Shown here piece after piece: positions 248-61,055 of a DNA stretch of 64,000 nucleotides (the first letter of the stretch is position 1; each line of letters starts with the position of its first letter). This stretch comes from an uncultured Candidatus Saccharibacteria bacterium (GTDB taxonomy: Bacteria; Patescibacteriota; WWE3; UBA101185; 2-01-FULL-41-18), in the NCBI GenBank assembly GCA_964636285.1, contig CAZWQF010000002.1, forward strand, positions 9,669-73,668, in the 5' to 3' direction. A program made the position numbers and the translations under genes. The notes under the pieces were generated by a model, which saw only the letters and a program-made list of their open reading frames with translations, searched no databases and was not told the DNA's origin.

Positions 248-718
248 ATGGTAAAATGTGCACTTGTGATGAAATATAAAAAGGCATTAATTACTGTTCT
301 CCTGCTTGTCTTAGTTCTTTCAGGTTTAAATATTTACGCCGGTAGAGAAAGTATCAAAGCTTTTCTAGCTAAAGGCAAACTTATTAAACAAGAAGAACCT
401 TTTACAGAGCTGTATTTTATAGATCCTGATTCCCTTAATCATGAACTAACAGAGGATGAGTCTGTAGAGTTTAAATTTAGGGTGTACAACATGGAAAATA
501 AGCCGACTAGATACTCTTGGAAAGCAACACTAATTCCAATGGAGGAATTTGGTCAGGAATTATCTATTGATTCGGGTCAATTTTTTCTAAATAACGGAGA
601 GTTTAAAGACCAACTAGTATACTTTAGACCAGGAAAGCTAATAGGTAGGCACAAGATTCTAATTGAGCTTCCTGAACTTAAGCAGTCAATTCACTATTTT
701 GTGGTAGGAAAAGAGTAA
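248..718 (+). CDS. Hypothetical N-terminally membrane-anchored/secreted protein
   Basis: ORF with a hydrophobic N-terminus (LITVLLLVLVLSGLNIYA). No recognisable catalytic motif. First gene of the co-directional glycosyltransferase cluster. Confidence 0.4.
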   Translation: MVKCALVMKYKKALITVLLLVLVLSGLNIYAGRESIKAFLAKGKLIKQEEPFTELYFIDPDSLNHELTEDESVEFKFRVYNMENKPTRYSWKATLIPMEEFGQELSIDSGQFFLNNGEFKDQLVYFRPGKLIGRHKILIELPELKQSIHYFVVGKE

Positions 719-721
719 TTT

Positions 722-1427
722 ATGAAGAAAGTAACAGTATTAATACCTTGTCATAACGAAGAAGAAGGAATTGGTAAAGTAATTAAGTCCATTCCTGTTG
801 ATTACCTCAAACAAATGGGTCTCAAGACTGAGATATATGTAATCGATAACAATTCTACAGACAAAACAGTTCAAGTAGCCAAAGCTGCAGGCGCAAATGT
901 CATCCATGAAAGAAATAAGGGTAAAGGAAATGCAATGCTTTTAGGATTTAAAAAGTTTCCTAAGGATTCTGACTACGTGGTTATGATGGACGGAGATAAC
1001 ACATACAAGGGTCAGGAGATGTATAGACTGTTAGAGCCGTTAATCAATGGATTTGGAGACGTTATCATAGGGTCAAGAATTACAGGAAAGATGCTTGATA
1101 AGTCATTTAAGGTACAAAATAGAATTGCCAACTGGGCGTACGCCTTTTTTGTCAGAACTTTTTACCACACTAATGTCACTGATGTGCTTAGTGGGTATTT
1201 TGCCTGGAAAAGAGAGGCGCTAGAAGATCTTGCACCCCATATTACATCGGCGGGTTTTACGCTTGAAATGGAGATGGTCACAAAATGTTGAAGCTTGGGC
1301 ATGAAGTATATTCTGTTCCAATTACCTATGATCGAAGAGATGGAGAATCCAAAATTGAAACAATAAAAGATGGATTAAGAATTTTAGATCAATTGTTCAG
1401 AAACATATTCTGGAGCCCAAAAAAATA
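722..1427 (+). CDS. GT2 glycosyltransferase (dolichyl-phosphate mannose synthase-like), interrupted by an apparent -1 frameshift near 1283-1290
   Basis: The N-terminus has the GT2 signature (VLIPCHNEE...VIDNNSTD...DGDNTY). The ORF stops at 1291, but the next frame continues with the expected C-terminus (LKLGHEVYSVPITYDRRDGESKIETIKDGLRIL...) to 1427. The junction lies in an A4 homopolymer (acaaaatgttg). This is a sequencing indel, a pseudogene or real slippage. Confidence 0.6.
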
Positions 1428-1434
1428 ACCTCCA

Positions 1435-2601
1435 ATGACAAAAATTGAACAACCTCACTCAAAACTAAAAATTGCCTTTGTAAGCGATGGTATTTACCAA
1501 TTTAATAAAGGTGGTAAAGAAAAAAGGCTTTACGATATTACAAAAAGGCTTGCGGAGTTGGGTTATGAAATTCATGTATATACTATGAATTGGTGGGGCG
1601 TAAAAAATGGAGAGGTGTTCACTGAAGATGGCGTGGTTTTCCATCCCATATGCCCATATTTGCCTCTGTACAGCGGCTCTAGAAGGTCTATAGCACAAGG
1701 AATTATCTTTGGCATATCCTGCTTTAAGCTTTTATTTGAAGACTTTGATGTACTTGATGTGGATCACATGCCATACTTCCCTATTTTTTCGTCAAAAATA
1801 GTTTGCATTTTAAAAAGAAAGAAGCTTGTAGGCATTTGGAATGAGGTGTGGGGGCTTGAGTATTGGAAAAGCTACCTAGGGTTTTTGGGAATAATTCCTG
1901 CAATTATGGAGCGAGTAATGGTGTATTTACCTGATAAGATCGTTTCTATTTCACAGATGACCACCAATAAACTTTTGAAGATGGATAGAAGGCTCAATGT
2001 AGAAACGATAGGTATTGGGACAGATATAGAATCAATTTCTAGAATTAAGGGCTCTAAAGATACAAGGGACATTATATTTTCAGGAAGACTTTTAAAACAT
2101 AAAAATGCCCACATGCTAATTGAGGCAGTCTCAATTTTAAAGTCGGAGTTTCCTGATATTAACTGTGCTATCACGGGAGATGGGCCTGAAAAAGAACCAT
2201 TAAATAGGCAGGTTACCAAACTTAAACTTAATAAAAATGTTAAACTTACAGGGTTCATTAAAAATCATGATGATCTTCTTTCGATGATAAAAAGTACCAA
2301 AGTTTTTGTGCTTCCATCAGAAAGAGAAGGCTTTGGAATTGCCGTTATTGAGGCAAATGCCTGCTCCACACCTGCAATAACTATTGACTCAGAGAACAAT
2401 GCTTCAAGATTTTTGATAAACCAAGGGGTTAATGGGTATGTTGCTGAGGGTAACGCAAAGGGGCTTGCCAGTACAATCAAAATGGCGTTTGTAAATGAAT
2501 CAAACCTTAGAAAAGGATCTATAAAAGAAGCTGTTAAATATAGCTGGAAAAATATAATCTTGAGTTTAGAGAAGGTTTATATTGAATATGCAGCAAAATA
2601 A
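1435..2601 (+). CDS. GT4-family glycosyltransferase
   Basis: A C-terminal EX7E-type motif region (FVLPSEREGFGIAVIEANACSTPAIT) typical of retaining GT-B (GT4) enzymes. Confidence 0.75.
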   Translation: MTKIEQPHSKLKIAFVSDGIYQFNKGGKEKRLYDITKRLAELGYEIHVYTMNWWGVKNGEVFTEDGVVFHPICPYLPLYSGSRRSIAQGIIFGISCFKLLFEDFDVLDVDHMPYFPIFSSKIVCILKRKKLVGIWNEVWGLEYWKSYLGFLGIIPAIMERVMVYLPDKIVSISQMTTNKLLKMDRRLNVETIGIGTDIESISRIKGSKDTRDIIFSGRLLKHKNAHMLIEAVSILKSEFPDINCAITGDGPEKEPLNRQVTKLKLNKNVKLTGFIKNHDDLLSMIKSTKVFVLPSEREGFGIAVIEANACSTPAITIDSENNASRFLINQGVNGYVAEGNAKGLASTIKMAFVNESNLRKGSIKEAVKYSWKNIILSLEKVYIEYAAK

Positions 2602-3694
2602 AGACGTTTTCATTATATCAACGTATCCCCCAACTCCAGGAGGTATAAGCAACTTTACAAAAAGGACTGTGTGTTCGCTTAGAGATATTGGTGTCACTGT
2701 AAACATCACACCTTTCACTGGAGTTTTAAGCGCTTTCTCTATTTTTAAAAGTATAATTAGTTTAAAGCCTTCTAATATAAGAATGGAGTATGACATCAGT
2801 ACGTACGGAGCTTCAGGACCTTTGCTTATTGCTGGTGTTTGGGCATTAAAAAAGCTACAAGGTTACAAGCTCTTTTTTAATTTTCATGAAGTTACTAGAG
2901 ACTTAGAGCACTTAAAAATGCTTGGTAGGGTTTACTACACATTGATAGCCAACTTCTGCGATTATATAACTGTTCATACTTATGAATCTAAAAATACATT
3001 GATATCAAAATGTAGGGTTAGTGCTGACAGAATTTATGTAATTCCTTTAGGCACAATGAACAAAGATCTTTCAATCACAAATAAAGAAGAAATGTTTGCA
3101 AGATACGCTCTTGAGGGTAACTACTTTTTATTCATAGGATTTATACATCCACAAAAAGGAATTGAAAACTTTATCAAGGCTTCAAAAGAGCTTGAAAGAC
3201 TAAATAAAGAAGCTTTTGACCGAATGAGCTTTGTGATTGCAGGTGGTGTGAGGCCAAGAAAAGGAGTATTCAAGATTTTTCAAAGAGCTGATAACTTATA
3301 TTTTGAGTCATTAAAAAGGTTAGTAGTAGATCTAGGACTTCAAGAAAAAGTTAAATTTTTAGGGTACATTGAGGATAAATTTTTCTCTTCCTTAATTATT
3401 AATTCAGAAGCCGTAGTTATACCTTATGTAAAAACAGAGCAAAGCGGTGTTCTAAATCAAGTTCTCCCCTACCAAGTACCCATTATTGCTTCCAACATTG
3501 GTGGGTTAGGTGAGACACTTAGGGATTTTGGGATGCTTGTTGAAAAAGATGACTTTGAGAAGATCGCAACCTTTATGAACGAACTAATCACCGATAGGAC
3601 AAAGAAAACAGCACTACTTGAAGGTTATAAAAAGTTAAACTCTGAGCTTGAGCCAGCAAACATAGCAAAAATGTTTGAAGAAAGGCTTGTATGA
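2582..3694 (+). CDS. GT4-family glycosyltransferase
   Basis: GT-B architecture with a conserved C-terminal sugar-donor binding region (VIPYVKTEQSGVLNQVL...IASNIGGLGE). Overlaps the neighbouring genes, suggesting translational coupling. Confidence 0.65.
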   Translation: MNMQQNKDVFIISTYPPTPGGISNFTKRTVCSLRDIGVTVNITPFTGVLSAFSIFKSIISLKPSNIRMEYDISTYGASGPLLIAGVWALKKLQGYKLFFNFHEVTRDLEHLKMLGRVYYTLIANFCDYITVHTYESKNTLISKCRVSADRIYVIPLGTMNKDLSITNKEEMFARYALEGNYFLFIGFIHPQKGIENFIKASKELERLNKEAFDRMSFVIAGGVRPRKGVFKIFQRADNLYFESLKRLVVDLGLQEKVKFLGYIEDKFFSSLIINSEAVVIPYVKTEQSGVLNQVLPYQVPIIASNIGGLGETLRDFGMLVEKDDFEKIATFMNELITDRTKKTALLEGYKKLNSELEPANIAKMFEERLV

Positions 3695-4593
3695 TTTCAA
3701 TTGTAATAATTGTTAAAAATGACCCTAAGCTTGAGGATACACTTTATGCATTACAAAAAATTACCAAACCAGAGGAAACTGAAATTATTGTAATAGATGC
3801 ATCAACAAAAGACTTTGGAATCAGAGAAAAATTCCAAGATGTAAAATATATTCCTTTTAAAGGAGACGGAGTAAAAAGATACACTATTCCAGAGCAAAGG
3901 AATGCAGGAATCAACTCTGCAAAAGGTGACATTATTGTCTTTATTGATTCAAGTTGTATTCCAACAGACGAATGGCTTGTAGAACTTGTTAAACCAATCA
4001 GAGAAGAATCTGAAGAGATTGTTTCAGGCTCGACGTTCTCTACAAATAAGCAGACATTAAATGACCTGGATCATATTAAAAAGGCAGGACTTAAGTACAT
4101 TGAAGAGTGTGCAACTATCAATTTAGCTTTCAAAAAATCCTTAACTGAAAAGATAGGGATGTTTGATGAGAGATTTGATTATGGGTCGGATGTAGATTTT
4201 TCTTGGAGAGTAAGAGACGCCGGAGTTAATATTAGGTATGCTCCTTCAGCAAAAATAACTCACGATTGGGGTGATGTTAACCAAGAGTTTAAAAGAACAT
4301 TAGTTTATGGTCAGGCAAGAGCAAGGCTTTACCTTAAACACAGAAATAGGATACAAAGCATTCCATCCATAGATCCAGTCATGTTTGTATACCCAATCCT
4401 AATAGTTTCTTCTCCAGGGATTCTGCTAATCCCCTGGTTCTGGCTTGCATTCATCTTGATTAATATTCTACTTGTAATTAAAAACATAAAGGATCCAAAA
4501 CCTGTGTATATTATTGTTAAGCACTACATTTACGGTTTTGGGGTGTTGAAAGAGATTGTTAGGCATATATTCAAGCAAGGTTATGGGTCATAA
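3691..4593 (+). CDS. GT2-family glycosyltransferase
   Basis: An N-terminal GT-A motif (ISIVIIVKN...IIVIDASTKD...DSSC) with DxD-like acidic residues. Confidence 0.65.
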   Translation: MISIVIIVKNDPKLEDTLYALQKITKPEETEIIVIDASTKDFGIREKFQDVKYIPFKGDGVKRYTIPEQRNAGINSAKGDIIVFIDSSCIPTDEWLVELVKPIREESEEIVSGSTFSTNKQTLNDLDHIKKAGLKYIEECATINLAFKKSLTEKIGMFDERFDYGSDVDFSWRVRDAGVNIRYAPSAKITHDWGDVNQEFKRTLVYGQARARLYLKHRNRIQSIPSIDPVMFVYPILIVSSPGILLIPWFWLAFILINILLVIKNIKDPKPVYIIVKHYIYGFGVLKEIVRHIFKQGYGS

Positions 4594-6820
4594 AATTAAA
4601 CACTTTTTGACAATAATGTTACTCCCTCTGGCATTGGTACTGTTTAATGTTGCAGTTTTAAAATCATGGATTTCACCAATTCTTAGAATTCCATTCTCAT
4701 TTTTATTTTTATTTTTTCTCCCTGGATACCTAATTTTAAGAATAATAAATATTCAGCATGAAGAAAAACAGGAAAAGTTTTTCCTTTCAGTAATTTTAAG
4801 TATTAGCTTTGTCACAATCGTAGGTCTTATATTTAATACCGCGCTTCCTTATCTTGGTATAAAACGCCCTCTTGATGTTGAAAATATATTGCCTTGGTTT
4901 ACTGGAGTTTTAATCGTCATGTATTTTTACTTAGTTAAAGCTAAACTTTTAAATTTTGAGCTCAAGGGAAGATTCCAAAGGTTTAACCCAATAGATTTGC
5001 TAGGTTATTTTTTGCCCATGCTCGCTTTAGGTTTTTCAATTGCTGGGGCTACAATAATTAACAATGGGGGCGGAAATTTACTTTCCTATGCTGTTGTTGT
5101 TTCAATTTTTATTCTTGTTGTTTCAACAATTATTGCGCCTCGTCTATATTTAAATGCCTTCACTGTTTACGCAATTTCGCTTAGTCTTCAATATCTCTAC
5201 TCCCTTAGAAGTTGGTATGTGCTAGGTTACGATATAAATCAGGAGCTCAGGATTTTTAATTTAACTAAGGCGTACGGTCACTGGGATCTTGGGATTTTAA
5301 AGGAGGCTTACAATACTTGTTTGAGCATAAATCTTCTTCCCGCAATTCTCACAGATGTTGCGGGTATTAGCGAAAACACCTTTTTCAAACTAGTAATCCC
5401 TGCTATTAGCTGTCTTACGGTGGCTTTAATTTATCTAATGGGGAAGAAATTTATTAAGCCTCAAGCCGCATTTTTAGGGGCTTTTTTCTTTTCGGTTCAA
5501 AATCAGTTTCTTCAGCAGATGCCTGCATTAGGAAGGCAAAGTGTTGCAATCACATTTTTTACACTTGCTATTTATTCGCTATTTATTGGTAAACCTCTAA
5601 ACAGAAAAAGAGACATAATTTACATACTAGCTATTATTTCAATGGTTCTGTCTCACTACTCAACAACATATGTAGGCACCGTATCAATCATTGCTGCATA
5701 CTTTGTTCTACTCCTACTTAAAGTTTTAACAAAGGACTACTCTGCTCAAAGGCTCACACTAAGTCTTGTTGTTATAACATTTACAATTGCGTTTTTATGG
5801 AACACTCTTTTAACCGAAAATGTAAAGGGACTTGAGGCAACTCTTAGAAAGTCTGTACACAACATTAGTACTTCTTTTACGAGTGACATGAAAAGCGAAA
5901 CCGTAAAGAAGGCCTTATTTATATCTGAAGAAAACAAAGATGAGATACTTCAAGAATTCTATTCAAAAACTAAAGAAAAATATGCTCCACTTCCTGAGAG
6001 AGTAGTTGATGGGTATGAACCTTATATAATTGACACTGACTCGCTTTTGCCAATATTTGATTATCCAATGGTAACAAGGTATTTTGGCATGGCGTTACCT
6101 ATATTCTTTAGGCTTGCATTGCTTGCAGGCGTTTTAATCATGGGTATCCTTTTAATTAAGGGAAAGCTAGAACGTGAATACTCTGCTTTCAGTATTGTCT
6201 TTTTAGGTTTAGTAATTTTGATGCTTGTTCTTCCTAGTGTTTCGGTAGATTACAACTTAGAGAGGCTTTACCAGCAAGGTTTAATTTTACTGTCTATGCC
6301 TATTGTCATTGGAGCTTTGTTCTTTTTTAAATCTCTTGGTGAAAGATTTTCCATGGTGTTAGTCTCGTTCGTAATATTCTCATATTTACTTCTTAACATT
6401 GGAATTATCGAAAGAGTTTTTAACGGTACCCCTTCGGTGATATTTGAAAATATGGGAGGACATTATGATAGATACTATGTTTCTGCACCTGAAGTGGCAG
6501 GAGCAAAGAGGCTTCAAAAATTTATTAATTCTTACGATTTGAGCATAACAAGATCTGATAGGTACGGGTTTTTGAGAGTACTTGGATATACAAACCTTAG
6601 CTTAACTAGTTTTAGTTCGGATGTATTTCCTGAAACCCTTCAAGATGGAAGTTATGTTTATTTGTCAAAAACAAATGTACAAAAAAGCACAGCGTACGGT
6701 CTCTATAAGGATTACGTATTTAGCTATAATTACCCAATCAAGTACTTAGATTTGCAGAAAGACTTGCTTTATAGCAATAACAGTTCGCGAATTTATAGAG
6801 GAGCTCCAAGTGAAAATTAA
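4556..6820 (+). CDS. Large polytopic membrane protein; putative GT-C-type glycosyltransferase/polymerase with a C-terminal extracytoplasmic domain
   Basis: 754 aa with more than 12 predicted TM helices, then a roughly 250-aa soluble tail. Embedded among glycosyltransferases. Fold assignment is inference. Confidence 0.4.
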   Translation: MLGIYSSKVMGHKIKHFLTIMLLPLALVLFNVAVLKSWISPILRIPFSFLFLFFLPGYLILRIINIQHEEKQEKFFLSVILSISFVTIVGLIFNTALPYLGIKRPLDVENILPWFTGVLIVMYFYLVKAKLLNFELKGRFQRFNPIDLLGYFLPMLALGFSIAGATIINNGGGNLLSYAVVVSIFILVVSTIIAPRLYLNAFTVYAISLSLQYLYSLRSWYVLGYDINQELRIFNLTKAYGHWDLGILKEAYNTCLSINLLPAILTDVAGISENTFFKLVIPAISCLTVALIYLMGKKFIKPQAAFLGAFFFSVQNQFLQQMPALGRQSVAITFFTLAIYSLFIGKPLNRKRDIIYILAIISMVLSHYSTTYVGTVSIIAAYFVLLLLKVLTKDYSAQRLTLSLVVITFTIAFLWNTLLTENVKGLEATLRKSVHNISTSFTSDMKSETVKKALFISEENKDEILQEFYSKTKEKYAPLPERVVDGYEPYIIDTDSLLPIFDYPMVTRYFGMALPIFFRLALLAGVLIMGILLIKGKLEREYSAFSIVFLGLVILMLVLPSVSVDYNLERLYQQGLILLSMPIVIGALFFFKSLGERFSMVLVSFVIFSYLLLNIGIIERVFNGTPSVIFENMGGHYDRYYVSAPEVAGAKRLQKFINSYDLSITRSDRYGFLRVLGYTNLSLTSFSSDVFPETLQDGSYVYLSKTNVQKSTAYGLYKDYVFSYNYPIKYLDLQKDLLYSNNSSRIYRGAPSEN

Positions 6821-7898
6821 AGTACTAATTTATCCTAAAGAGCCAAACCCATATCAAGAACTGCTATATAGGCGTATACGAGAAAAAGGAATTCCCTGTA
6901 AATACTTCACAAGTTCGTTTGTTGAAAAGCATGGCTTCATTTATGGAATCCCCTCTATGCCATTTAGACTTCTATTTAAAAGACTTACTGGTTCAAACAT
7001 ATTTCACTTGCATTGGGCATATCACTTTTTGATTCCAATTCCAGGCAAAATTGGGAGATATTTGTCATCCCTGTATGCAATTTATTTTTTATTTTTTGTT
7101 AAGCTTTTTGGATTTAAGCTAGTGTGGACAGTTCACAATATAATGCCTCACGAGAATCAATTTCATAATGACAAATTAATCTATAACTTATTTTATGCTT
7201 TAGCTGACGCGAAAATTGTTCATACGGAGGAGACTATTAAAAGACTTGCGGATAAAGGATTTGATTCAAAAAACACATATGTTATTGAAATTGGAAATTA
7301 TCTAGGGTTATATCAAAACACAATATCTAAGGAAGAAGCAAGAAAAAAACTTGAAATTGATGCAAAAGATTACGTTTTTTTGTTTATTGGAATGGTAAAA
7401 AAGTACAAAGGAATTCAAGACCTATTAAAAACCTATTCGTATTTACTAGGTAAAAAGCATTTAAAGGATACAAAACTGATAATTGCTGGAAAGCCTTTTG
7501 ATACTGAAACTACAGAGTTCATTAGCAACTTTGCAAAGGAGGAACCAAGTATACTACCTACTTTAAAATATATTCCAGATAATGAACTACAAGTCTATCT
7601 CAATGCATGTAATTCTGTTGTACTTCCATTTAAAGATATAACAACAACCAGCTCTGCACTTCTTGCCTTTGGATTTAAGAGAGCCGTTGTAGCTCCTCTA
7701 ATAGGTGCTATTACAACATTTCCACAAGACACAGGATACTACTATGATAAGTCTGAAGGCTTAATCAAAGGCTTGCAAGACGCATACAAGAACGGTACTT
7801 CAAACAAAGGTGAAAATGCATTTGAGTATGTTAAAACTCTAAAATGGGAGAACTCTGCAGAAAAAACAATAAATCTTTACAATCTAATTATCAAATAA
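6810..7898 (+). CDS. GT-B (GT4-like) glycosyltransferase
   Basis: C-terminal half resembles the GT4 donor-binding domain (LIIAGKPFDTETTEF...VVLPFKDITTTSSALLAFGF). Confidence 0.55.
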   Translation: MKIKVLIYPKEPNPYQELLYRRIREKGIPCKYFTSSFVEKHGFIYGIPSMPFRLLFKRLTGSNIFHLHWAYHFLIPIPGKIGRYLSSLYAIYFLFFVKLFGFKLVWTVHNIMPHENQFHNDKLIYNLFYALADAKIVHTEETIKRLADKGFDSKNTYVIEIGNYLGLYQNTISKEEARKKLEIDAKDYVFLFIGMVKKYKGIQDLLKTYSYLLGKKHLKDTKLIIAGKPFDTETTEFISNFAKEEPSILPTLKYIPDNELQVYLNACNSVVLPFKDITTTSSALLAFGFKRAVVAPLIGAITTFPQDTGYYYDKSEGLIKGLQDAYKNGTSNKGENAFEYVKTLKWENSAEKTINLYNLIIK

Positions 7899-9122
7899 GT
7901 TTTTATTAGTAATAAAGTAGTACACATAGAACGCGTTAACAACTAAATGGGCACTTACATACGCAAGTCCGATTCCCGTAAGGCCTAATTTAATAAGCAA
8001 ATACGAACCGGTGAGGAGTACTGTGGCATAAAGAATACTAATTTTTGTTACCAAAAACGATCTCTTCTTATAATTTAGGAATGCAGCTGACAAGGAGTTT
8101 AATGATGAAAATATTGTAGAAACTGCCAAAAGTGCAAGAAGTGGGTAGGCATTTAAAGCGTATTCCTTACCAAACGCGAGCAGAATGAATTTTCCAAATA
8201 CAATAAGTAGCAAAGCAGCGGGAATTACTAAGGTACCAATAAATTTTAAGGTCTTAGTAAATAGGAACTTAATATCAACCTTTCCACCAGAGCTTACTGC
8301 AAGAAACGAACTGGAAGATGAACTTGGAATGGACGCAAGGGCGGTGTTTACCATTGTAGAAAAATAAAAGTAGGCAGCATATTTTGCCCCAAGAAAATTA
8401 ATAATTATTAAAGGCAAGATCGAGCCTATTGTTGTACCTGCTATACCGGAAATATAGTTATGAAACGAATATTTTGACATTCGTAAGAGAGCTTCAAGTG
8501 AAAATGCTGGTTTTGGCTTGATCTGGAAGTATAAAATTAAAAAAATAAATCCAGCTAGCGTAATGAAGACTGCCGGTAGTATAAACGAATACATTAACCC
8601 CACAAAACCAAGTGAATAAAAAGCAAAAATTAGAGCTATTTTGAGAATACCAAAGGTAAATCCTCTAATAAAAACAAACTGAGATGATTTAAAGGCTGTA
8701 AAAGTTGCGTCTAGAATATTATTTAATGAAGTAAATACTGCAATTAAGGTGAAAATTAGAACTAATTGAGCGCTGTTTATTACCACATGAAGTTTTGGAG
8801 AAAAAAACTCTAAAAATTGAACATATATTAGACAGGTAATAACAGTAGATATAAGGCTTAAAATTACTACGCTATTTATTTTCCTTTCTTTCTGAGTTGA
8901 ATCAGGCAAAAATCTAAGTAAACCACTCTCTGTCCCTAATAACCCAAGGTTTGCCATAAGGTTTGCAGCGCCTAGAAGAGCCGTTGCATTTCCAATTGTA
9001 GTGGAGTCAAAAAACCTGGTAGCAATTATCCAAAACAAAAAACCAAAGCCGCTTAATGCAGCAGTGTTTAGCATCAGAAACAATGAATTTCTATATATTG
9101 GATCTTTGAAAAATTTATTCAT
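7884..9122 (-). CDS. Wzx-like oligosaccharide/polysaccharide flippase (MOP/PST family)
   Basis: 412 aa with about 12 TM helices. The N-terminal motif (SLFLMLNTAALSGFGFLFWIIATRF) is typical of polysaccharide-biosynthesis (PST) transporters. Confidence 0.65.
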   Translation of the reverse strand: MNKFFKDPIYRNSLFLMLNTAALSGFGFLFWIIATRFFDSTTIGNATALLGAANLMANLGLLGTESGLLRFLPDSTQKERKINSVVILSLISTVITCLIYVQFLEFFSPKLHVVINSAQLVLIFTLIAVFTSLNNILDATFTAFKSSQFVFIRGFTFGILKIALIFAFYSLGFVGLMYSFILPAVFITLAGFIFLILYFQIKPKPAFSLEALLRMSKYSFHNYISGIAGTTIGSILPLIIINFLGAKYAAYFYFSTMVNTALASIPSSSSSSFLAVSSGGKVDIKFLFTKTLKFIGTLVIPAALLLIVFGKFILLAFGKEYALNAYPLLALLAVSTIFSSLNSLSAAFLNYKKRSFLVTKISILYATVLLTGSYLLIKLGLTGIGLAYVSAHLVVNAFYVYYFITNKNLFDN

Positions 9123-10049
9123 TTACCTAGCGACTGGAACCTTTATGTACTTATAGAAGTATGACACAAATATGAAAAAATAAATTAAAAACAAAACCAT
9201 CCCAGCATATGTATGAAACATACCAATAGCTAGGTCTTCAGAATACAGCGCTCCTATTACCACTAGAAGGCTAACTCTCAGAATATTTAGCATAAACACC
9301 CCAATAAATGCGGGTATAAAGAGCAAAAATGCCTTTGTTTTATTAATAAGCTCTATTTCGCTTAGTATCATAAAAATGTATAAAAATGTAAACATAAGCA
9401 TAGAATCAAGGCCTGAGCACGCTTCCCCAACAATAATTGAGAAGTTATTAGCTGTTAGATATAGAGGAGCCTCAATTTCGGCATAGTCTACAAACGGCTT
9501 AATAGCAACAAAAACTATGTTTAGAACAAGTCTGCTTAAAAGTGGCCAAAGCTTCCAAACCTGAAAAATTGCAAAGTATGTAAGTATTGAAAATAATAGG
9601 GAGGTGACTACCTGTTGTCTATAAACATTAAGCACTGATTGGATTGTAAAAAAACCAAAACACCCTAAGAAAATCAAAGTAACAAGTAGCACTAACAGCG
9701 AATGGGAGGCCACAAGTAAAAGAAGTGATTGGTTTGCTTCCTGATACCCTAAAAGTGACATATGAAGCGTGTATACAATGGGAAGCAACATAACCCCAGC
9801 AACAATTAGTATAGAATCAATCCAATCTCTTGGGTAAACCTTAAGGTCTGAAAGCTTTGATTTTGTGAGCATTGATAGGGCAACAATGAAGACAATTAGT
9901 GCCTTTCCCATGTTCCCGTATGTATAAAAATAGCTTCCGTAAAGAAGCCTTGTAGGAATTACCCATGAGCCAATTAAGGCTGAAACAAAGAGAAAAACAG
10001 CAACAAAAACAATTGATCTAAATATAATAGGTTTTAGGCTGCTCTTCAT
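9123..10049 (-). CDS. Exosortase/archaeosortase-family transpeptidase (EpsH-like)
   Basis: About 8 TM helices. Conserved active-site-like motifs are present: EACSG (the Cys of the CSG motif), a downstream NILRVS (Asn...Arg) and HTYAG (His). Sits next to a PEP/PEF-CTERM-like target gene. Confidence 0.6.
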   Translation of the reverse strand: MKSSLKPIIFRSIVFVAVFLFVSALIGSWVIPTRLLYGSYFYTYGNMGKALIVFIVALSMLTKSKLSDLKVYPRDWIDSILIVAGVMLLPIVYTLHMSLLGYQEANQSLLLLVASHSLLVLLVTLIFLGCFGFFTIQSVLNVYRQQVVTSLLFSILTYFAIFQVWKLWPLLSRLVLNIVFVAIKPFVDYAEIEAPLYLTANNFSIIVGEACSGLDSMLMFTFLYIFMILSEIELINKTKAFLLFIPAFIGVFMLNILRVSLLVVIGALYSEDLAIGMFHTYAGMVLFLIYFFIFVSYFYKYIKVPVAR

Positions 10050-10066
10050 GTTAAATCCTTGAAAAA

Positions 10067-10420
10067 TTAGAAAGGTCTTTTCTTTAAGAAAAGGAAACTA
10101 CCAGTTGAAAGCCCGGCAGTTAGTAGGCCTGTAATAGTGGAAAATTCAGGTACTTCTTTTGCTTTGCACTTATCTTTATGCTCACCATTTCTTTTGCATC
10201 TTTTGTTACCCTTTTCATCTCTATCTTCTCTTTCATTGTCTCTATCACCCTCTTCATGATTGTCTCTGTCATCATTTCTTGATTCCCTACCCTGCTCTTC
10301 TCTGCCTCTGTTGTCTTCAGCCTTTGCAAGTGAAGGTACTGAAATAAACACAGTAAAGGCTACAAAAAGTGCAAATGCGAATTTAAATTTTGATATCCTA
10401 GAGTAATCGCTGTGAACCAT
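10067..10420 (-). CDS. Small secreted Asp/Glu/Arg-rich protein with a C-terminal PEF-CTERM-like sorting signal
   Basis: Signal peptide (FAFALFVAFTVFISVPSLAKA). About 60 aa of extreme charged low complexity follow, with two Cys. The tail is VPEF + hydrophobic helix (STITGLLTAGLSTGSFLFL) + KKRPF. Confidence 0.55.
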   Translation of the reverse strand: MVHSDYSRISKFKFAFALFVAFTVFISVPSLAKAEDNRGREEQGRESRNDDRDNHEEGDRDNEREDRDEKGNKRCKRNGEHKDKCKAKEVPEFSTITGLLTAGLSTGSFLFLKKRPF

Positions 10421-10442
10421 AAGGTGGACTATACACTATGCC

Positions 10443-11591
10443 TTATTTATTATCAAGTGTTTTTGTAAAAATTGAAGCCTGAGCAGCTTGTCTTGAAGCA
10501 AGTAGAACTTCAAAAGATGGAACTGGGCTAGTGTTATTCCTCAACTTTTGAATTATAGGAAGTATTGACTGATCAAAGTAGAAATAAGTCTCAAGAAGTT
10601 CCAGACTATTCTGAGGGTCGTAGTTTTTATTGGTTTTTGATGCTGAAGCCGTTTTGTCCCATGCAGCCGTAGAGTTAACAAACTCTGCATGCTTTTTTTG
10701 ACCGTTTACATATGGAATTAAAAAGTCTACAGATTTCTTAATTGAGGCACCTGAAGAGGATGTGTAAGTAAACAAATCAACACCTTTATTTCTTGCCTCT
10801 CTAGCTAGAGAAACAAGGGGCATGAGATTGTATACATGATAATGAAGTGCATCTCTTTCTACAAAATCAAGGCTTGTTCCGTCAGTTTTTAAATTTTGAT
10901 CAATCTGCTTCTTGAATTCAACTATACCTTTTGATGCAAGTTCAGCATTATCTGTAGTTAGGCCTATGAGAGTAATGAGCTGTACTCTATGCGAATTCCA
11001 GTTATTTAAGTCTCTCCCATCGTTATATTTTATTGCCAACTCTTTCTGCCCAATTGAAATAAGCCAGTTATCAATTCTGGATCTGGACGCTGAGTCTAGC
11101 GAAGGTCTAAACCAAGTGTAACCCTTTATCATGGGTACTAGGTGACTTTCGTCTATTGAGTTTCCTGTAGTTTTATATACAGGTACCCAGGCATTCATAA
11201 AAGCATAGGCTTTTGAGGAGTATTTAGAGTCTTTAGTTTGATTATATGCAAAACCTAGTGTGTAAACTTTCCAAACATCTTTTAGTGATTCAACTGTTTT
11301 AAGTCTATCTGGATCGTTTCCTAATTTACCCTCCATACTAATTTTTGAAATGGGTCTTGGATTTTCTAGAAGGTATTTATCAGCCTCCGCAAGCTTTGAC
11401 GCAATAACCTTTGCTTCGAGCTGCTGCTGGGTAATTTCAATTCCTAGAACATTTGAAAGGCTTAAATTAAAAGAGGCTAACACAAAACCTATAATTCCTA
11501 TTGTTAAGACTAAAATACTGGATAGAAGCACAAAAACCGTGCTGAATCTTAGGTTCCCTTGTTTTTTAACTGTCTTTTTGGTCTTCTTCAT
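10443..11591 (-). CDS. Membrane-anchored polysaccharide lyase-like protein (alginate-lyase/PL5-like)
   Basis: N-terminal TM anchor. NNWNSHR resembles the alginate-lyase NNHSYW motif. Predicted alpha/alpha-toroid-type sequence. Family assignment is tentative. Confidence 0.4.
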   Translation of the reverse strand: MKKTKKTVKKQGNLRFSTVFVLLSSILVLTIGIIGFVLASFNLSLSNVLGIEITQQQLEAKVIASKLAEADKYLLENPRPISKISMEGKLGNDPDRLKTVESLKDVWKVYTLGFAYNQTKDSKYSSKAYAFMNAWVPVYKTTGNSIDESHLVPMIKGYTWFRPSLDSASRSRIDNWLISIGQKELAIKYNDGRDLNNWNSHRVQLITLIGLTTDNAELASKGIVEFKKQIDQNLKTDGTSLDFVERDALHYHVYNLMPLVSLAREARNKGVDLFTYTSSSGASIKKSVDFLIPYVNGQKKHAEFVNSTAAWDKTASASKTNKNYDPQNSLELLETYFYFDQSILPIIQKLRNNTSPVPSFEVLLASRQAAQASIFTKTLDNK

Positions 11592-40937: not shown

Positions 40938-42519
<1,582 letters not shown>

Positions 42520-42523
<4 letters not shown>

Positions 42524-42864
42524 AAAACACCTCCTCTTTCATGTAAGGCCTCGGCTAAGGTTTGATTGTCAAAAATAGACCTCTCAAAGTCATCAAGCCA
42601 TGTAGTAACTAAGAAATCTATATCAGTTGTTATTGCTTTTAATTCAGCCACAGTAAATTCTTTAAAAAGCTCACCTAAAGCTTCTTTCACCTTGGCAAGA
42701 TCTTTATCTTGTCTTTTTTGATCAGGAAACATTACATCAAGTGTTTCATTGATGTTGAATTGGGATTTAAATTTTGAGGCAGATTGATCAAAAACCTGAA
42801 TGAAAGGTGCTATTAACAGTTCTCTTTGCTCTTGGTATATATCTATTCCTAAACTCATGGGCAT
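42520..42864 (-). CDS. Hypothetical small protein co-transcribed with the integrase (possible recombination directionality factor)
   Basis: 114-aa acidic ORF that overlaps the integrase start by 4 nt. The RDF role is speculation. Confidence 0.3.
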
Positions 42865-42871
42865 TATTTAA

Positions 42872-42889
42872 CTATAAATATATTTATAG
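42872..42889. promoter_or_regulatory. Perfect 18-bp palindrome CTATAAATATATTTATAG in the divergent promoter region between integrase operon and T4CP gene
   Basis: Read directly from the sequence. Partially re-iterated downstream (TATATAAATATA). Confidence 0.4.
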
Positions 42890-42982
42890 TGTATATAAAT
42901 ATAATGATAGAGTCAAGTAGTTTTCCTTATAGGTGTACTAAAAAACTAAATAAGGGTATACTTCAATAAATTTTCCTGCCTA

Positions 42983-45565
42983 GTGAAAATAGGCATGACT
43001 GACATTAATCAACTTAAAATTAGTAATGTCATTGAATGGGTATTAAAACACCCATTTTTAGGGTCTTCAAAACTTCCGATTGGTCTTGAAATAGCACTCG
43101 TTTGTCTACTTTCAATATTAGTTTTAATTTTTCTTATTAAATTATTTGGTTTACTCCTAAGTCTTAAGTCTCAGTTAAGCTCAAGTTACGACCTGTTACT
43201 CTTAACTCCACCTAAAGAGATTGAAAAACTCCCAGAATCTACAAAAGAGTTATTTAAGCTTTTACATTCTTTAGGTAAAAACCAACCACTGCTCAATAGA
43301 ATACTCAATGTATTTTCTTGTTATTCATTAGAAATAGTATCTACAAAAGAAAAGGGAATATATTTTCTTTTAAGATGCCCTCAAAGAGATACAGGCACAA
43401 TAAAACGAAGCTTAGTAGCTTACTCTCCTGACATTTTAATTTCAGAAACTAATGACTATTTGAATGACCTAGCTAGTTCAAAAGTCACCGAATTAAAGCT
43501 ATCAGGACACAAATTTTTACCACTAGAGTCACAGGCTAACTTAAAGGCAAGTGACCCAATCGCATATTTAACTGGCATGATGACAAAACTATCTGAAAAT
43601 GAATTAATTGCGTTGCAGTTTGTTATAACTCCTTTTCAAGAAAATAAAGAATTTTTTGAATTAAAGCAAAAGCTAAATTCCAATATTAATGTTGTTGAAT
43701 TACTTAAGCATTCTAGATTTAATCTAGTTAAATTTCTCCCAAAAGTCTTGTATTCAATTATTTCAATTCCTTTTTGGATTATTGAGAACCTTGCAACCAA
43801 TGGGAACTCAAGCTTCCCAAATGTATTTAATGAAGGGACTAGAAAAATCGATTCCTTAAGTCCTAATAATGAAGTTCAGGCAAGAATTCAATCGAAAGTA
43901 ACCCAACCACTTTTTACAACCAATATTAGAGTCCTTGTTAAATCTGATCGCACACTAACGCTTTCAGAGAGAACTCGTGGTTTACTATCTTCATTTAATG
44001 GCTTTACCTATGCCAGTTACCAATCAGTAAAGCCTGTAAGGGTGCTTAAGTTTGAGTTTGTTAAACAAATACTTCTTAAACTTTTCTCAAAAAGAATTGT
44101 AGGAGTATTTAACTCGTCAATTTTATCTGTGTCTGAAGTTTCAGATTTATTTCATTTTCCATTTACACGATCGGCTAAAACAGAAAACTTAGTAAAGCTT
44201 CACTATAAAGAGCTTCCTGCTCCGATATCACTTAAAGGCCAAAAGAAGCTTGATATTGTCTTTGCTAAAAACACTTTTAACCAATCAGAAACCCCTATTG
44301 GACTTACTACTGACGAGCGAAGACGACACATGTACATTATTGGTGCAACAGGGACTGGAAAATCCACAATCCTACTTTCAATGCTTAAACAAGATATTAT
44401 GAATGGTAAAGGAGTTTGTTTAATCGACCCACATGGAGATTTATCTGAGCAAGTTTTATCACTCATACCAGAAAATAGAGTTAAAGATGTTATTTACTTT
44501 AATCCAGATGATACTGAGTACCCAATTGGTATAAATCTACTTGAACAAACACCAGGACTAACGCCTGCTGAATCAATTAGAGAAAAAGAATTTATAGCAG
44601 AAAGCATTATCTCGGTCTTTCACAAAATCTATTCTGATAAATACTCAGGTCCTCGAATGGAGTACATCTTAAGAAATACTATTCATACAGCTTTTACTGT
44701 TCCTGATGCAACGCTTTTTACAGTCCAAAAACTGTTAATTAATACCAACTACAGAAAATCTGTTACAAACAATCTAACTGACGAAAACCTTAAAGAATTT
44801 TGGAAGTATGAGTTTAATAAAGCTGGTGATTACCAGAAGGTTAAGATGATTAGCCCGATTACAAATAAGATTGGACGGTTTTTATTTAGCTCAACTGCTA
44901 AACAAATTCTAGAACAGCCCAAATCAACCATAAACTTTGATGCAATCTTAAACGACGGCAAAATATTAATTTGTAATCTTTCCAAAGGAAAAATCGGTGA
45001 GGATAACTCAAGCATCTTTGGTGTACTTCTCATGGCAAAAATCCAGCTAGCTTCTTTAAAACGAGCGAGAATTAAAGAATCAGAGCGAAAAGACTTTTAT
45101 TTGTACGTCGATGAATTTCAAAACTTTGCTACTTCAGCCTTTGCTCAAATACTTTCTGAAGCGAGAAAATACAGGCTTAACGCAATTCTTGCTCACCAGA
45201 CTACTTCACAACTTGAAGACTCATCCCTAGTTAATGTGACACTGGCTAACACTGGTACCGTTATATGTTTCAGAACTGCTAACCCAGAAGATGAAAGAGT
45301 TGTATTGCCTCAGTTTAGACCTTATGTAGAACAAGGGGAGATAGTTAATTTACCTTCATATCATTTTTATATGAAGCTTGGAGCAATGAACCCTGAAGAG
45401 CCGTTCTCAGGTGTGACTATACCTATCACTGTAAGTAACGGTAGTAATACAAACATGGTAATCGAAAGTTCAAGAAAAAATTATGCAAAAACTTTAAAAC
45501 CAAAAGAAGTTGGGAGTGAGACTAAAACAAACAAATCTACGGTATATAAGCCAAAGAACTTATAA
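42983..45565 (+). CDS. Type IV coupling protein (TrwB/TraD/VirD4-like P-loop ATPase) with N-terminal TM anchor
   Basis: N-terminal TM helices, Walker A (MYIIGATGTGKST) and Walker B (FYLYVDEFQNF), 860 aa. Confidence 0.6.
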   Translation: MKIGMTDINQLKISNVIEWVLKHPFLGSSKLPIGLEIALVCLLSILVLIFLIKLFGLLLSLKSQLSSSYDLLLLTPPKEIEKLPESTKELFKLLHSLGKNQPLLNRILNVFSCYSLEIVSTKEKGIYFLLRCPQRDTGTIKRSLVAYSPDILISETNDYLNDLASSKVTELKLSGHKFLPLESQANLKASDPIAYLTGMMTKLSENELIALQFVITPFQENKEFFELKQKLNSNINVVELLKHSRFNLVKFLPKVLYSIISIPFWIIENLATNGNSSFPNVFNEGTRKIDSLSPNNEVQARIQSKVTQPLFTTNIRVLVKSDRTLTLSERTRGLLSSFNGFTYASYQSVKPVRVLKFEFVKQILLKLFSKRIVGVFNSSILSVSEVSDLFHFPFTRSAKTENLVKLHYKELPAPISLKGQKKLDIVFAKNTFNQSETPIGLTTDERRRHMYIIGATGTGKSTILLSMLKQDIMNGKGVCLIDPHGDLSEQVLSLIPENRVKDVIYFNPDDTEYPIGINLLEQTPGLTPAESIREKEFIAESIISVFHKIYSDKYSGPRMEYILRNTIHTAFTVPDATLFTVQKLLINTNYRKSVTNNLTDENLKEFWKYEFNKAGDYQKVKMISPITNKIGRFLFSSTAKQILEQPKSTINFDAILNDGKILICNLSKGKIGEDNSSIFGVLLMAKIQLASLKRARIKESERKDFYLYVDEFQNFATSAFAQILSEARKYRLNAILAHQTTSQLEDSSLVNVTLANTGTVICFRTANPEDERVVLPQFRPYVEQGEIVNLPSYHFYMKLGAMNPEEPFSGVTIPITVSNGSNTNMVIESSRKNYAKTLKPKEVGSETKTNKSTVYKPKNL

Positions 45566-46027
45566 CGAAGAAAGTTTTCTTATTAACTCATCATTATTTA
45601 TATATTTGTAAGTTGTTAGCCCAGCATGTGACGCGGCTATTAAATTCTCATTTGAATCGTCGATAAATAATATTTCCGAGGGAGAAGCACCTAACTTTAT
45701 TGAAATTTCAGTATAAGCTCCTGGATCCTTCTTGCCTTTACCAAGATCTATAGCAGATATAACGGTGTCAAATACCTCATGAACTTTATCCTTAATCTCT
45801 GGTGCATCTTGTATAGTTTCCGAGGTGAATATAACTAACCTTCGATCTGAATGTTTTTTCAGATCTATCAGTATCTCATCGTTCAGCTTGAAGTAATTAG
45901 TAAAAATAAACCCTGATTCATTCTTTTTTTCTTTATACAAGTTATTTAGTGAGCCAGTATATAGATCATCCGTAGGAAACAAGAGCACTCTTGAAAAATC
46001 GAATAAAAGAATTTTGACCATGTTCAA
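45560..46027 (-). CDS. HAD-superfamily hydrolase-like protein
   Basis: Motif I-like LLFDFSRVL, conserved K in motif III (GKGKKDP) and motif IV (FIDDSNEN). Confidence 0.45.
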   Translation of the reverse strand: MNMVKILLFDFSRVLLFPTDDLYTGSLNNLYKEKKNESGFIFTNYFKLNDEILIDLKKHSDRRLVIFTSETIQDAPEIKDKVHEVFDTVISAIDLGKGKKDPGAYTEISIKLGASPSEILFIDDSNENLIAASHAGLTTYKYINNDELIRKLSSL

Positions 46028-46145
46028 ATTATACTCTAGATTATATATTTTGCCTTATTATCAGATATTGCCAACGGTAGGCAATCTATATACATAAAAT
46101 ACATTGATATTAAGCCATAATTAAAATAGAGTGTCCCTTCTATAC

Positions 46146-46163
46146 TCATATATATATATGAGG
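46146..46163. promoter_or_regulatory. Perfect 18-bp palindrome CTCATATATATATATGAG upstream of the Replic_Relax-like gene (candidate operator or oriT nick-region repeat)
   Basis: Read directly from the sequence. A second dyad (TTGCCAACGGTAGGCAA) lies about 70 bp upstream. Confidence 0.35.
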
Positions 46164-46204
46164 GAGGAAATGTTACAATAACCAAAACTGCCCAAGAAAA
46201 ACAT

Positions 46205-46975
46205 ATGGACAGTACTAAACTATCTCAAAAACAAATTGACCTAATCAAAACTATCTATCGATTCAGATTCCTAACCAGTATCCAGCTACAACAACTCTTT
46301 ACTAATATTCCTCAAAGAACACTCAACTACAATCTCAAACACTTATATTCAAACAACTACATAAACAGACACTATTCAAGAAGTGACAAAGATACATTCA
46401 ATCCAGCTATCTACTTTCTAAATACCCAAAGCATAAATGTATTAAAATCTTTAAACCCAAAAGACTCTGGGATTAATAAAAGGGTATATAATGAAAAATA
46501 TCGCTCACAAACCTTTGTTTCTGGTCAGATTGAGTTAGCAAATTATTTTTTATACCTCTCTCAAAAAGTTAAAGACCAAAAAGCTAGCCTAGATTACTTT
46601 ACTGAAATTGATCTGATTGGAAGTACTCTCTTTATAAAACCATACCCACATGTGTACTTTAAAAGAGTAGATAGCTTAGGTGAAGAGTCTCACTTTATTT
46701 TTGAATATCTTCATGGGGACACTACAAGAGCAGCAATAATTACTCTTATTCAAAGACTGGGTAGACAATTTGAATCAGAGAGATTTCAAAAGAAGCTTCA
46801 AATACAGTTCCCAAGTATTTTGATCATGTGTGAAACCCAAAGAGTTAAAAAAAGGTTAAATACAGAGCTTGTCAAGCGAAATGACTCACTTCAAATAAGC
46901 ACCGAGACTATTTTTATGGCTACAAAAGACGAAGCTTATAAGGGTGAATGGTCTCCTGTTGTTGATAAAGACTAG
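46205..46975 (+). CDS. Replication-relaxation (Replic_Relax)-like winged-helix protein
   Basis: The N-terminal wHTH-like segment (IKTIYRFRFLTSIQLQQLF) resembles PF13814 proteins of Gram-positive plasmids/ICEs. Low certainty. Confidence 0.35.
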   Translation: MDSTKLSQKQIDLIKTIYRFRFLTSIQLQQLFTNIPQRTLNYNLKHLYSNNYINRHYSRSDKDTFNPAIYFLNTQSINVLKSLNPKDSGINKRVYNEKYRSQTFVSGQIELANYFLYLSQKVKDQKASLDYFTEIDLIGSTLFIKPYPHVYFKRVDSLGEESHFIFEYLHGDTTRAAIITLIQRLGRQFESERFQKKLQIQFPSILIMCETQRVKKRLNTELVKRNDSLQISTETIFMATKDEAYKGEWSPVVDKD

Positions 46976-47000
46976 CCCGCAGTTTTTTAGGCTACGGGCT
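46970..47000. terminator. Hairpin (TAGCCCG...CGGGCTA) between convergent genes; candidate bidirectional terminator
   Basis: Inverted repeat TAGCCCG/CGGGCTA with a T-rich loop (CAGTTTTTTAGGC). Confidence 0.4.
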
Positions 47001-47007
47001 AAATGCT

Positions 47008-48104: not shown

Positions 48105-48184
48105 CAATTCATTCGATGTGGTTATAGGAATACCTTTATTAAAGCTTGTTGTGAATAAAGTAAAAGTTGATTAATCTATAACTA

Positions 48185-48703: not shown

Positions 48704-48708
48704 CAAAT

Positions 48709-50777: not shown

Positions 50778-50866
50778 TAGAAAAAAATAACTAAGAAGTC
50801 TTGCAACTAAATTATAACTTCGTCTCAATTTCCGAAACCTCTATGCTTAAAAATTCAAAAATGAAA

Positions 50867-52211: not shown

Positions 52212-52236
52212 TAATTAGTTTCCTGCTTGAAACTGT

Positions 52237-61023: not shown

Positions 61024-61055
61024 AACATGATTTCCTGATTTATATTAGGTGAAAC

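Follow-up and report, generated by a model that had tools for sequence, protein, structure and literature searches.

Exosortases, EpsH-family proteins known from exopolysaccharide loci (PMC1569441), carry three invariant motifs, Cys-x-Gly, Asn-x-x-Arg and His-x-x-x-Gly, of which the Cys, Arg and His have been likened to the sortase triad (PMC1569441, Haft et al. 2006). The nucleophile that resolves the exosortase acyl-enzyme intermediate has not been known since the first description of the family in 2006 (PMC1569441), and exosortases had not yet been analysed experimentally by 2018 (PMC6098224). In the literature searched, the sole member of the superfamily with experimental data is the archaeosortase ArtA of Haloferax volcanii: experiments showed that it cleaves its substrates, needs its predicted active-site residues and couples the processing to lipid anchoring (PMC6098224). 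Here we describe a pair of genes from a 64-kb stretch of DNA on contig CAZWQF010000002.1 (hereafter the window, to which all coordinates without a locus name refer). One encodes an exosortase/archaeosortase-family enzyme, and the other a small cargo protein ending in a sorting signal. We consider it quite probable that the two form a dedicated protein-sorting system of the exosortase/archaeosortase type.

9123..10049, (-) strand: exosortase/archaeosortase-family polytopic membrane enzyme, 308 aa, from its open reading frame (ORF) and hidden Markov models (HMMs)
10067..10420, (-) strand: cargo gene, 117 aa, encoding a signal peptide, a hyper-charged body and a VPEF sorting signal

A first-pass annotation, made from the DNA letters and their ORFs, had called the larger protein a 308-aa polytopic exosortase-family protein with Cys, N..R and His motifs. 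The ORF, the family models and the motifs all bear this out. The protein scored 47.3 bits against TIGR04178 (curated cut-off 23) and 48.9 bits against PF09721 (curated cut-off 25.7), and all three EpsH-family motifs are found in it, the first as C211-S-G213:

nt 9417-9419, (-) strand: putative catalytic Cys211, within VGEACSGLDS
nt 9285-9287, (-) strand: putative catalytic Asn255, in N255-I-L-R258
nt 9276-9278, (-) strand: putative catalytic Arg258, in N255-I-L-R258
nt 9213-9215, (-) strand: putative catalytic His279, in H279-T-Y-A-G283

In 43 of 43 homologs, drawn from bacterial- and archaeal-type loci, these four residues and W168 do not vary. A confident AlphaFold model based on 23 homologs (predicted local distance difference test, pLDDT, 88.9; predicted template modelling score, pTM, 0.81) shows eight long helices, the superfamily being expected to have about eight transmembrane (TM) helices. 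A small beta sheet at residues 190-206 shortly precedes Cys211. Basic residues are found at both termini and in loops 61-75, 132-143 and 231-236; given the positive-inside rule, this pattern would place Cys211, Arg258 and His279 towards the outer face. No solved structure resembling the enzyme was found by sequence, and the best Foldseek match had E=0.84.

Could the protein belong to another family? The first-pass annotation had named CAAX proteases and O-antigen ligases as the identities that would overturn its reading. Neither family matches at E<=1 in Pfam or NCBIfam, and we therefore reject both. Within the superfamily, the best-scoring named subfamily was XrtE (TIGR04162), at 39.6 bits against a cut-off of 150, followed by 8TM_EpsH (28.6 against 105.55), XrtV (27.3 against 313), ArtC (TIGR03762; 27.3 against 100), XrtA (24.2 against 208) and XrtX (23.8 against 170); XrtB and XrtD were also far under their cut-offs. 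Homologs of the enzyme behaved likewise: XrtN, XrtO and XrtT fell far short for them, and the enzymes of four archaeal-labelled loci (L020, L029, L034 and L036) and of one labelled WWE3 (L013) passed the general signature only.

The neighbouring ORF had been read at first pass as a signal peptide, a charged body with two Cys and a VPEF-TM-KKRPF end, and its composition agrees:

10322..10420, (-) strand: predicted Sec signal peptide, aa 1-33, with a basic n-region, a hydrophobic helix at aa 6-27 (from the model) and a small-x-small end, AKA
10154..10321, (-) strand: charged body, aa 34-89, 56 residues, delimited by composition
10070..10153, (-) strand: C-terminal sorting signal, with VPEF at aa 90-93 (nt 10142-10153), a TM helix at aa 94-112 and KKRPF at aa 113-117

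The signal peptide is predicted to be cleaved after AKA. The charged body, AEDNRGREEQGRESRNDDRDNHEEGDRDNEREDRDEKGNKRCKRNGEHKDKCKAKE, is 70% D/E/R/K/H and 91% D/E/R/K/H/N/G/Q, and its hydrophobic residues are two Ala only. Its N-terminal 36 residues are acidic (net about -9); its C-terminal 20 are basic (net about +6) and hold both Cys, as C-x9-C. A single-sequence AlphaFold model of the cargo, which is weak evidence, contains two helices only, the signal peptide and the C-terminal anchor, and renders the body as coil with a block-mean pLDDT of 51-64. As modelled, the body is probably a disordered polyampholyte peptide. No DNA tandem repeat was found in the charged region.

We asked whether the tail accompanies the enzyme elsewhere. 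The word index of a large database yielded 25 homologs of the enzyme, at 32-43% identity. The contexts of ten of these were taken, along with 36 more loci from species-representative genomes, and the six-frame ORFs of the first 44 sources were scanned for C-terminal tails of the form [VIMALT]PE[FYL][GS]-hydrophobic-basic. We found 62 such tails, spread over 33 of the 44 sources; the core motif [VIMALT]PE[FYL][GS] occurred internally once in 535,470 six-frame ORF residues. Because the scan pattern itself imposes the motif, we also selected ORFs without it, requiring a signal peptide and, at the C-terminus, a hydrophobic helix with a basic end. PE[FYL][GS] was present in 50 of the 73 ORFs selected in this way, and near variants were present in two more. 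Among the remainder, at least three resemble sortase substrates (xAxTGx), five are a small PWPREDTFG membrane protein considered below, and others are noise-like.

The consensus of the 62 tails is V-P-E-F-[GS]-x-[IV]-[TP]-G...[SA]-x-G-x-[FY]...[RK][KR][KR]. Val stands at -1 in 51 of them, Gly at +7 in 53, Ser/Ala at +14 in 61, Gly at +16 in 37 and Phe/Tyr at +18 in 56, and positions +7, +14, +16 and +18 are free of constraint from the search pattern. Arg/Lys stands at +22 in 61 of the 62, so that Pro and the basic cluster stand at a constant distance. The window tail, VPEFSTITGLLTAGLSTGSFLFLKKRPF, agrees with this consensus, including the 22-residue spacing from the Pro to the first basic residue, and the small gene upstream of the enzyme in L001 supplies another example, TSVPEFGMIPGAIALLSSGGTFLYMKKRYSK. 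Most cargo genes share the strand of the enzyme gene and lie less than 2 kb upstream of it; L007 has four tailed genes in tandem, and up to four or five cargo genes occur per locus overall. A cognate signal of motif, TM helix and basic end, as expected beside an enzyme of this superfamily, is thus found here. The pairing of enzyme and tail is not a matter of chance. A profile of 35 tails, run against a database of 5.8 billion proteins, returned 5 short fragments from 1,042 candidates, and the word index is uninformative about how far the tail has spread.

The layout had been likened at first pass to PEP/PEF-CTERM sorting signals. The tripartite layout stands, but the curated PEP-, PEF- and PEFG-CTERM models do not pass the tail. 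Cargos, whole or as isolated tails, were run against NCBIfam (E<=10), with HMMER filters that drop very weak matches. PEP-CTERM (TIGR02595; cut-off 16) gave 15.7 bits for the isolated window tail and 11 for the whole cargo, and the motif is PEF, not PEP. PEFG-CTERM (TIGR04296) reached at best 8.4 bits against 25, with one archaeal-type tail, and did not match the window tail; PEF-CTERM (TIGR03024) matched neither whole cargos nor isolated tails at E<=10; and PExPT-CTERM was below its cut-off or borderline. LPXTG_anchor gave borderline, noise-level scores with clade tails (15.5-16.5 bits against 15.9), as expected for tails of this type (PMC1569441, Haft 2006). The enzyme and its tail thus belong to the superfamily and yet to no named subfamily or signal class tested. 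We conclude that the VPEF[G/S] tail is the standard predicted signal of the whole enzyme clade, in bacteria labelled as members of the Candidate Phyla Radiation (CPR) and in archaea labelled as DPANN (Diapherotrites, Parvarchaeota, Aenigmarchaeota, Nanoarchaeota and Nanohaloarchaeota). The tail is therefore no oddity of one gene, as had been supposed; the hyper-charged body is indeed unusual.

The gene that follows the enzyme in the window belongs to the same picture:

7884..9122, (-) strand: MOP-superfamily (multidrug/oligosaccharidyl-lipid/polysaccharide; Wzx-like) polysaccharide flippase, 412 aa (PF13440, 35.1 bits; cut-off 23)

Its ATG abuts the stop codon of the enzyme gene, with zero intergenic spacing. 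In 29 of 47 loci a flippase homolog lies less than 5 kb from the enzyme; L039 has it on the opposite strand, and in all the others it stands downstream on the same strand. At five loci the two are fused in a single ORF:

L028, 4592-6817: enzyme-flippase fusion
L030, 9986-12154: enzyme-flippase fusion
L032, 9926-12133: enzyme-flippase fusion
L037, 6132-7766: enzyme-flippase fusion
L048, 4977-7199: enzyme-flippase fusion

Among the representative proteins, P0068 joins enzyme and flippase, P0074 joins them in the reverse domain order, P0053 carries a polysaccharide pyruvyl transferase fused to the enzyme, and P0177 a Bac_transf priming sugar transferase. In L048 a VPEFG-tailed cargo still lies just upstream of the fusion. 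The same locus has, upstream of the fusion, a Rce1/CAAX-like protease gene (PF02517; L048 3358-4044) that overlaps the start of the cargo gene. The fusions to flippase and sugar transferases argue for a physical coupling of the enzyme to the handling of lipid-linked glycans. We found no description of exosortase-flippase or exosortase-transferase fusions in a literature search of limited scope.

What does the enzyme clade sort? With signal peptides and tails removed, 45 of 63 cargos formed one homology group (BLAST E<=1e-4) that spans bacterial- and archaeal-type loci. Its consensus is a two-Cys domain of ~100-120 residues, with weak Big_1 (Ig-like) and CarboxypepD_reg matches that are all under Pfam cut-offs. 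Other cargos include a subtilase in L020 and L023 and Cys-rich DUF4215/myxo-type repeats in L036 and L007. An HMM of 38 cargo bodies found no match to the canonical domain elsewhere in the window (E<=10), and the body of the window cargo had itself as its only match among 5.8 billion proteins, a singleton cluster. The predicted charged peptide is thus an orphan in a slot usually held by the two-Cys domain. Its nearest analogue is the L016 cargo, which has a D/H/R-rich body, 65% charged, with C-x10-C just before APEFG; the two give a weak full-length alignment (28.7% over 122 aa, E=6e-9 with the low-complexity filter off). In L001 the cargo body is rich in N/H/D, with C-x8-C, and one L039 cargo is similarly charged in an N-terminal extension. 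Of these three, only the L016 cargo is comparable as a whole. A hyper-charged cargo is thus uncommon, not unique.

A further set of short cargos is rich in His and carries four Cys and a CFCH motif (L045 135-545; L046 1884-2270 and 2339-2689; L047 478-867). Their pattern is CFCHN.N..P...C, followed by F.H.KHV..GKDSFG.C, and a cargo in L006 (3801-4172) has a similar motif, ICH...AHLAHGD..G.C. The CFCH-type cargos may be small domains stabilised by metal or disulfides.

With ArtA and its PGF-CTERM substrates, the window pair shares the superfamily signature of Cys/Arg/His catalytic-type residues and the tripartite signal of motif, TM helix and basic tail. ArtA combines C-terminal cleavage with covalent anchoring (PMC6098224), and by analogy the same outcome is likely here. 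The ArtA motif, however, is PGF rather than VPEF, and no ArtA model is among the NCBIfam matches of the window enzyme. ArtA cargos in the review include the S-layer glycoprotein (PMC6098224). The portions of the literature searched contain no gene link between ArtA and a flippase. The archaeal hosts of ArtA have an envelope without an outer membrane and would resemble the presumed CPR host of the window in this respect. CPR and DPANN lineages are generally regarded as lacking an outer membrane.

Two archaeal signals come closer in motif. In the ArtC/PEF-CTERM system, P-E-F precedes a TM helix and basic residues, as in the window tail, and three of five homolog enzymes scanned scored 23-36 bits with ArtC (cut-off 100); this system has been reported from Euryarchaeota of the methanogen and ANME (anaerobic methanotrophic) types (PMC5244752). 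PEFG-CTERM has the identical core VPEFG, and one archaeal-type tail aligned to model positions 1-9, but its helix and tail portions are unlike those of the clade and its hosts are ammonia-oxidising Thaumarchaeota, another lineage. Among bacterial systems, XrtA/EpsH with PEP-CTERM has in common with the window the three invariant motifs and a polysaccharide-biosynthesis locus. Its motif is PEP, whereas here it is PEF, and every PEP-CTERM host has an outer membrane, the median number of substrates being eight (PMC1569441). The signal of XrtE, VPEID-CTERM, taken from its name, also begins V-P-E, and five homolog enzymes scanned scored 36.6-57.6 bits (cut-off 150). XrtE is an exosortase E/protease with a model of 516 positions, and its fused protease is echoed by the CAAX/Rce1-like protease gene beside the L048 cargo; the window enzyme, at 308 aa, has no extra domain. 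Sortases, finally, are analogous Cys/His/Arg transpeptidases acting on an LPXTG signal of motif, TM helix and basic residues (PMC1569441), yet their fold and family are unrelated, and real sortase genes coexist with the exosortase-like system in related genomes.

We propose the following route for the window pair. The 117-aa precursor would be exported by Sec and lose its signal peptide, and its C-terminal helix would hold it in the membrane with KKRPF in the cytoplasm and VPEF at the outer membrane face. There the 308-aa enzyme, presenting Cys211, Arg258 and His279, would recognise VPEF. Attack by Cys211 within or next to this motif would release the helix and basic tail and leave a thioester with a charged peptide of ~56-60 residues. 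Transfer to a cell-surface acceptor would then resolve the thioester, the candidates being the head group of a membrane lipid, as in ArtA, or a lipid-linked glycan handled by the abutting flippase. We hold the lipid head group and the flipped glycan to be about equally likely acceptors, and simple release to be less likely. The mature product would be a polyampholyte of ~56-60 residues whose disulfide-closed basic end lies beside the attachment point. As for a role at the surface, we would guess at charge modulation, cation binding or host-cell contact.

Several points weigh against this proposal. Cleavage and transfer by enzymes of this clade are argued from analogy. A PE[FYL][GS] tail is missing from 11 of the first 44 sources; several of these are contigs truncated close to the enzyme gene, and two distant archaeal loci among them, L042 and L043, have plainer PEF tails. 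The window cargo is the single ORF with such a tail in these 64 kb of a 139,961-bp contig, and hence the single candidate substrate seen there. The tails miss every curated CTERM model, PEP-CTERM being the nearest. The cargo body has no homolog, so the function of the peptide is a guess. Finally, the CPR assignment rests on the labels that the metagenome-assembled genomes (MAGs) of the nearest relatives carry, some of which are plainly unreliable.

Perhaps the glycan is the acceptor throughout the clade? The enzymes would then be protein-to-glycan ligases, and CPR and DPANN would share a machine for a proteoglycan-like coat, probably through inter-domain transfer. We put this forward tentatively and hold it to be rather doubtful. 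The thioester would in that case be resolved onto the lipid-linked oligosaccharide just delivered by the adjacent or fused MOP flippase, and the cargo would be the covalent head of a surface polysaccharide, in the window a polyampholyte peptide of 56 residues. If true, this would for the first time name concretely the acceptor of exosortase substrates. The clade offers handles on that question in its sharp recognition signal and in its fusions to flippase, priming transferase and pyruvyl transferase, which point at a lipid-linked glycan. In addition, the window substrate, at ~56 residues once processed, would be small enough for intact-mass analysis of the C-terminal attachment.

A transfer step may also be lacking altogether. 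The enzyme would then be a hydrolytic processing protease, and the cut at VPEF would free a disulfide-looped peptide as an effector, a signal or an antimicrobial-like peptide. The cargo is tiny and has a cationic C-terminal half that holds a C-x9-C loop, and a short cargo in L047 has a weak YxzE-like bacteriocin match (E=0.09, far under the Pfam cut-off); moreover, transfer is suggested here by analogy. Nevertheless, the main cargo of the clade is a folded two-Cys domain whose weak Ig-like and CarboxypepD_reg-like matches suit a surface protein, and other cargos include a subtilase. ArtA joins cleavage to lipid anchoring (PMC6098224), and linkage and fusion to flippase and priming transferase suggest a reaction coupled to an acceptor. 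We regard release by hydrolysis as unlikely.

More improbable still is that the C-terminal helix is a permanent anchor and that the EpsH-like protein serves glycan export or polymerisation without acting on its neighbour. The flippase and sugar-transferase fusions would fit a purely glycan role, and EpsH was itself proposed early on to be a flippase or polymerase (quoted in PMC1569441). A plain anchor, however, would need neither a near-invariant VPEF[GS] with fixed spacing nor Gly and Ser conserved across bacteria and archaea, and it would not co-localise so consistently with the enzyme gene. The Cys, Arg and His that are needed for ArtA catalysis (PMC6098224) are also invariant here. Very improbable, lastly, is that ORF 10067-10420 is the decayed remnant of a canonical cargo, its body replaced by low-complexity sequence and with no functional product: the body is a purine-rich, low-complexity orphan overlapped by ORFs in other frames, in a window where the canonical domain is absent, but the frame is intact, the signal peptide complete, the conserved tail positions kept and the operon spacing tight, and the independent L016 has its analogous D/H/R-rich C-x10-C cargo directly upstream of the enzyme.

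We return to the proposed sorting system and its distribution. An exhaustive search of 1.84 billion representative proteins with an enzyme profile matched 141 clusters at E<=1e-30, 784 at E<=1e-10 and 2,594 at E<=0.001; with 141 clusters at the strictest of these levels, the clade is rare. Among species-representative genomes, CPR-labelled carriers were Woesebacteria, WWE3, Daviesbacteria, Levyibacteriota and Saccharibacteria, and DPANN-labelled carriers were Woesearchaeota, Pacearchaeota, Nanoarchaeota and Nanoarchaeia. In a neighbour-joining tree, which is indicative only, the archaeal-labelled enzymes form one clade and the window enzyme sits on its own long branch. Judging from these sequences, the enzyme clade is distinct, uncatalogued, rare and common to CPR-labelled bacteria and DPANN-labelled archaea. 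The two groups have the enzyme clade, its signal and its dominant cargo domain in common; both are ultra-small and mostly host-attached, and their surfaces are poorly understood.

In the literature searched, we found no paper linking exosortases with CPR or Patescibacteria. Archaeosortases and DPANN are co-mentioned in papers without being connected in the portions retrieved, and the main review places archaeosortases in part of the Euryarchaeota alone (PMC6098224). PEF-CTERM is named there only for archaea of the methanogen and ANME types in the papers searched, and PEFG-CTERM only for ammonia oxidisers. Taxonomic labels need caution, since several assemblies carry improbable ones. Many carrier MAGs (L008-L043) are implausibly labelled, for example as 'uncultured Gammaproteobacteria' on contigs with a CPR-type locus. 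On a 'Flavobacterium sp.' contig, L030, the enzyme groups with the DPANN clade and is accompanied by an archaeal-type tail and a fusion. Such labels are probably the result of mis-binning or placeholder taxonomy.

Two other components recur near the enzyme. The first is a small membrane protein, ~71-85 aa where the full ORF is seen, that ends LTH..PWPREDTFG....VSF.SFF.WN. It was found at no fewer than 10 distinct loci of bacterial and archaeal type, beside the enzyme in most and often on the opposite strand; in L028 it lies ~2.9 kb away.

L001, 5329-5439: PWPREDTFG protein
L005, 2579-2698: PWPREDTFG protein
L010, 9204-9323: PWPREDTFG protein
L021, 5982-6095: PWPREDTFG protein
L022, 4299-4415: PWPREDTFG protein
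L026, 5452-5568: PWPREDTFG protein
L028, 1616-1729: PWPREDTFG protein
L045, 1488-1607: PWPREDTFG protein
L046, 3634-3753: PWPREDTFG protein
L047, 1852-1971: PWPREDTFG protein

It may be a third component of the sorting system, and it was not found in the 64-kb window (best tblastn E=6). The second is true sortase: sortase genes (PF04203) lie near the enzyme in L003, L004 and L044, together with xAxTGx-type substrates, one of which (L003 2596-3216) contains a poly-Asp/Ser stretch. L010 has an xAxTGx-type substrate, and no sortase gene was identified at that locus.

L003, 2036-3216: sortase/xAxTGx region
L004, 480-1660: sortase/xAxTGx region
L044, 832-1995: sortase/xAxTGx region
L010, 1487-2032: sortase/xAxTGx region

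Because sortases and their own substrates coexist with the exosortase-like pair, genomes of this type appear to run two independent C-terminal sorting systems.

In the window, the pair lies in a glycan locus, as the first-pass annotation had proposed. In addition to the flippase, it is flanked by the following:

10443..11591, (-) strand: membrane-anchored alginate-lyase-family protein (PF05426, 124.5 bits)
248..7898, (+) strand: convergent glycan-assembly block, by Pfam, of DUF1616-like (under the Pfam cut-off), glycosyltransferase family 2 (GT2), GT4, GT4, GT2, DUF2206 membrane protein and GT4-like genes
10428..10456, (-) strand: sigma-70-like promoter match, TTGATA-17-TATAGT, directly upstream of the cargo ATG, with 10 of 12 consensus matches

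The alginate-lyase-like, cargo, enzyme and flippase genes follow one another on one strand, separated by 22, 17 and 0 nt. The alginate-lyase family recurs in L003 and L044, and DUF2206 and GT genes again stand beside the enzyme in L001, L003, L005 and L047. The enzyme ATG is preceded, at 7 nt, by an AAGGA Shine-Dalgarno-like sequence; none is visible before the cargo ATG. The promoter match is the sole good one 5' of the cargo gene, and its -10 hexamer ends 8 nt before the ATG. It is a consensus match only and weak evidence, since the region holds 18 promoter-type sites against 13 expected. Unless the match arose by chance, it would imply a leaderless or near-leaderless cargo transcript.

Elsewhere, the window encodes bacterial housekeeping proteins (a family A DNA polymerase, GatA/GatB and a ClpB-like ATPase), and no rRNA was found in its 64 kb. 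A large serine recombinase gene (40991-42523, (-) strand) overlaps the end of tRNA-Gly(ccc) (40938-41012) and is followed by genes for a HerA/TrwB-like ATPase (42983-45565) and a TraG/VirB4-like P-loop ATPase (54629-56428); GC content falls to 0.33-0.35 over 42-56 kb. The region 40938-57021 is probably a conjugative or mobile element integrated at tRNA-Gly. A 475-aa protein encoded at 61049-62476 on the (+) strand has a C-terminal SAVED domain (PF18145, 36.9 bits) and may be a defence effector of the CBASS (cyclic oligonucleotide-based antiphage signalling system) type.

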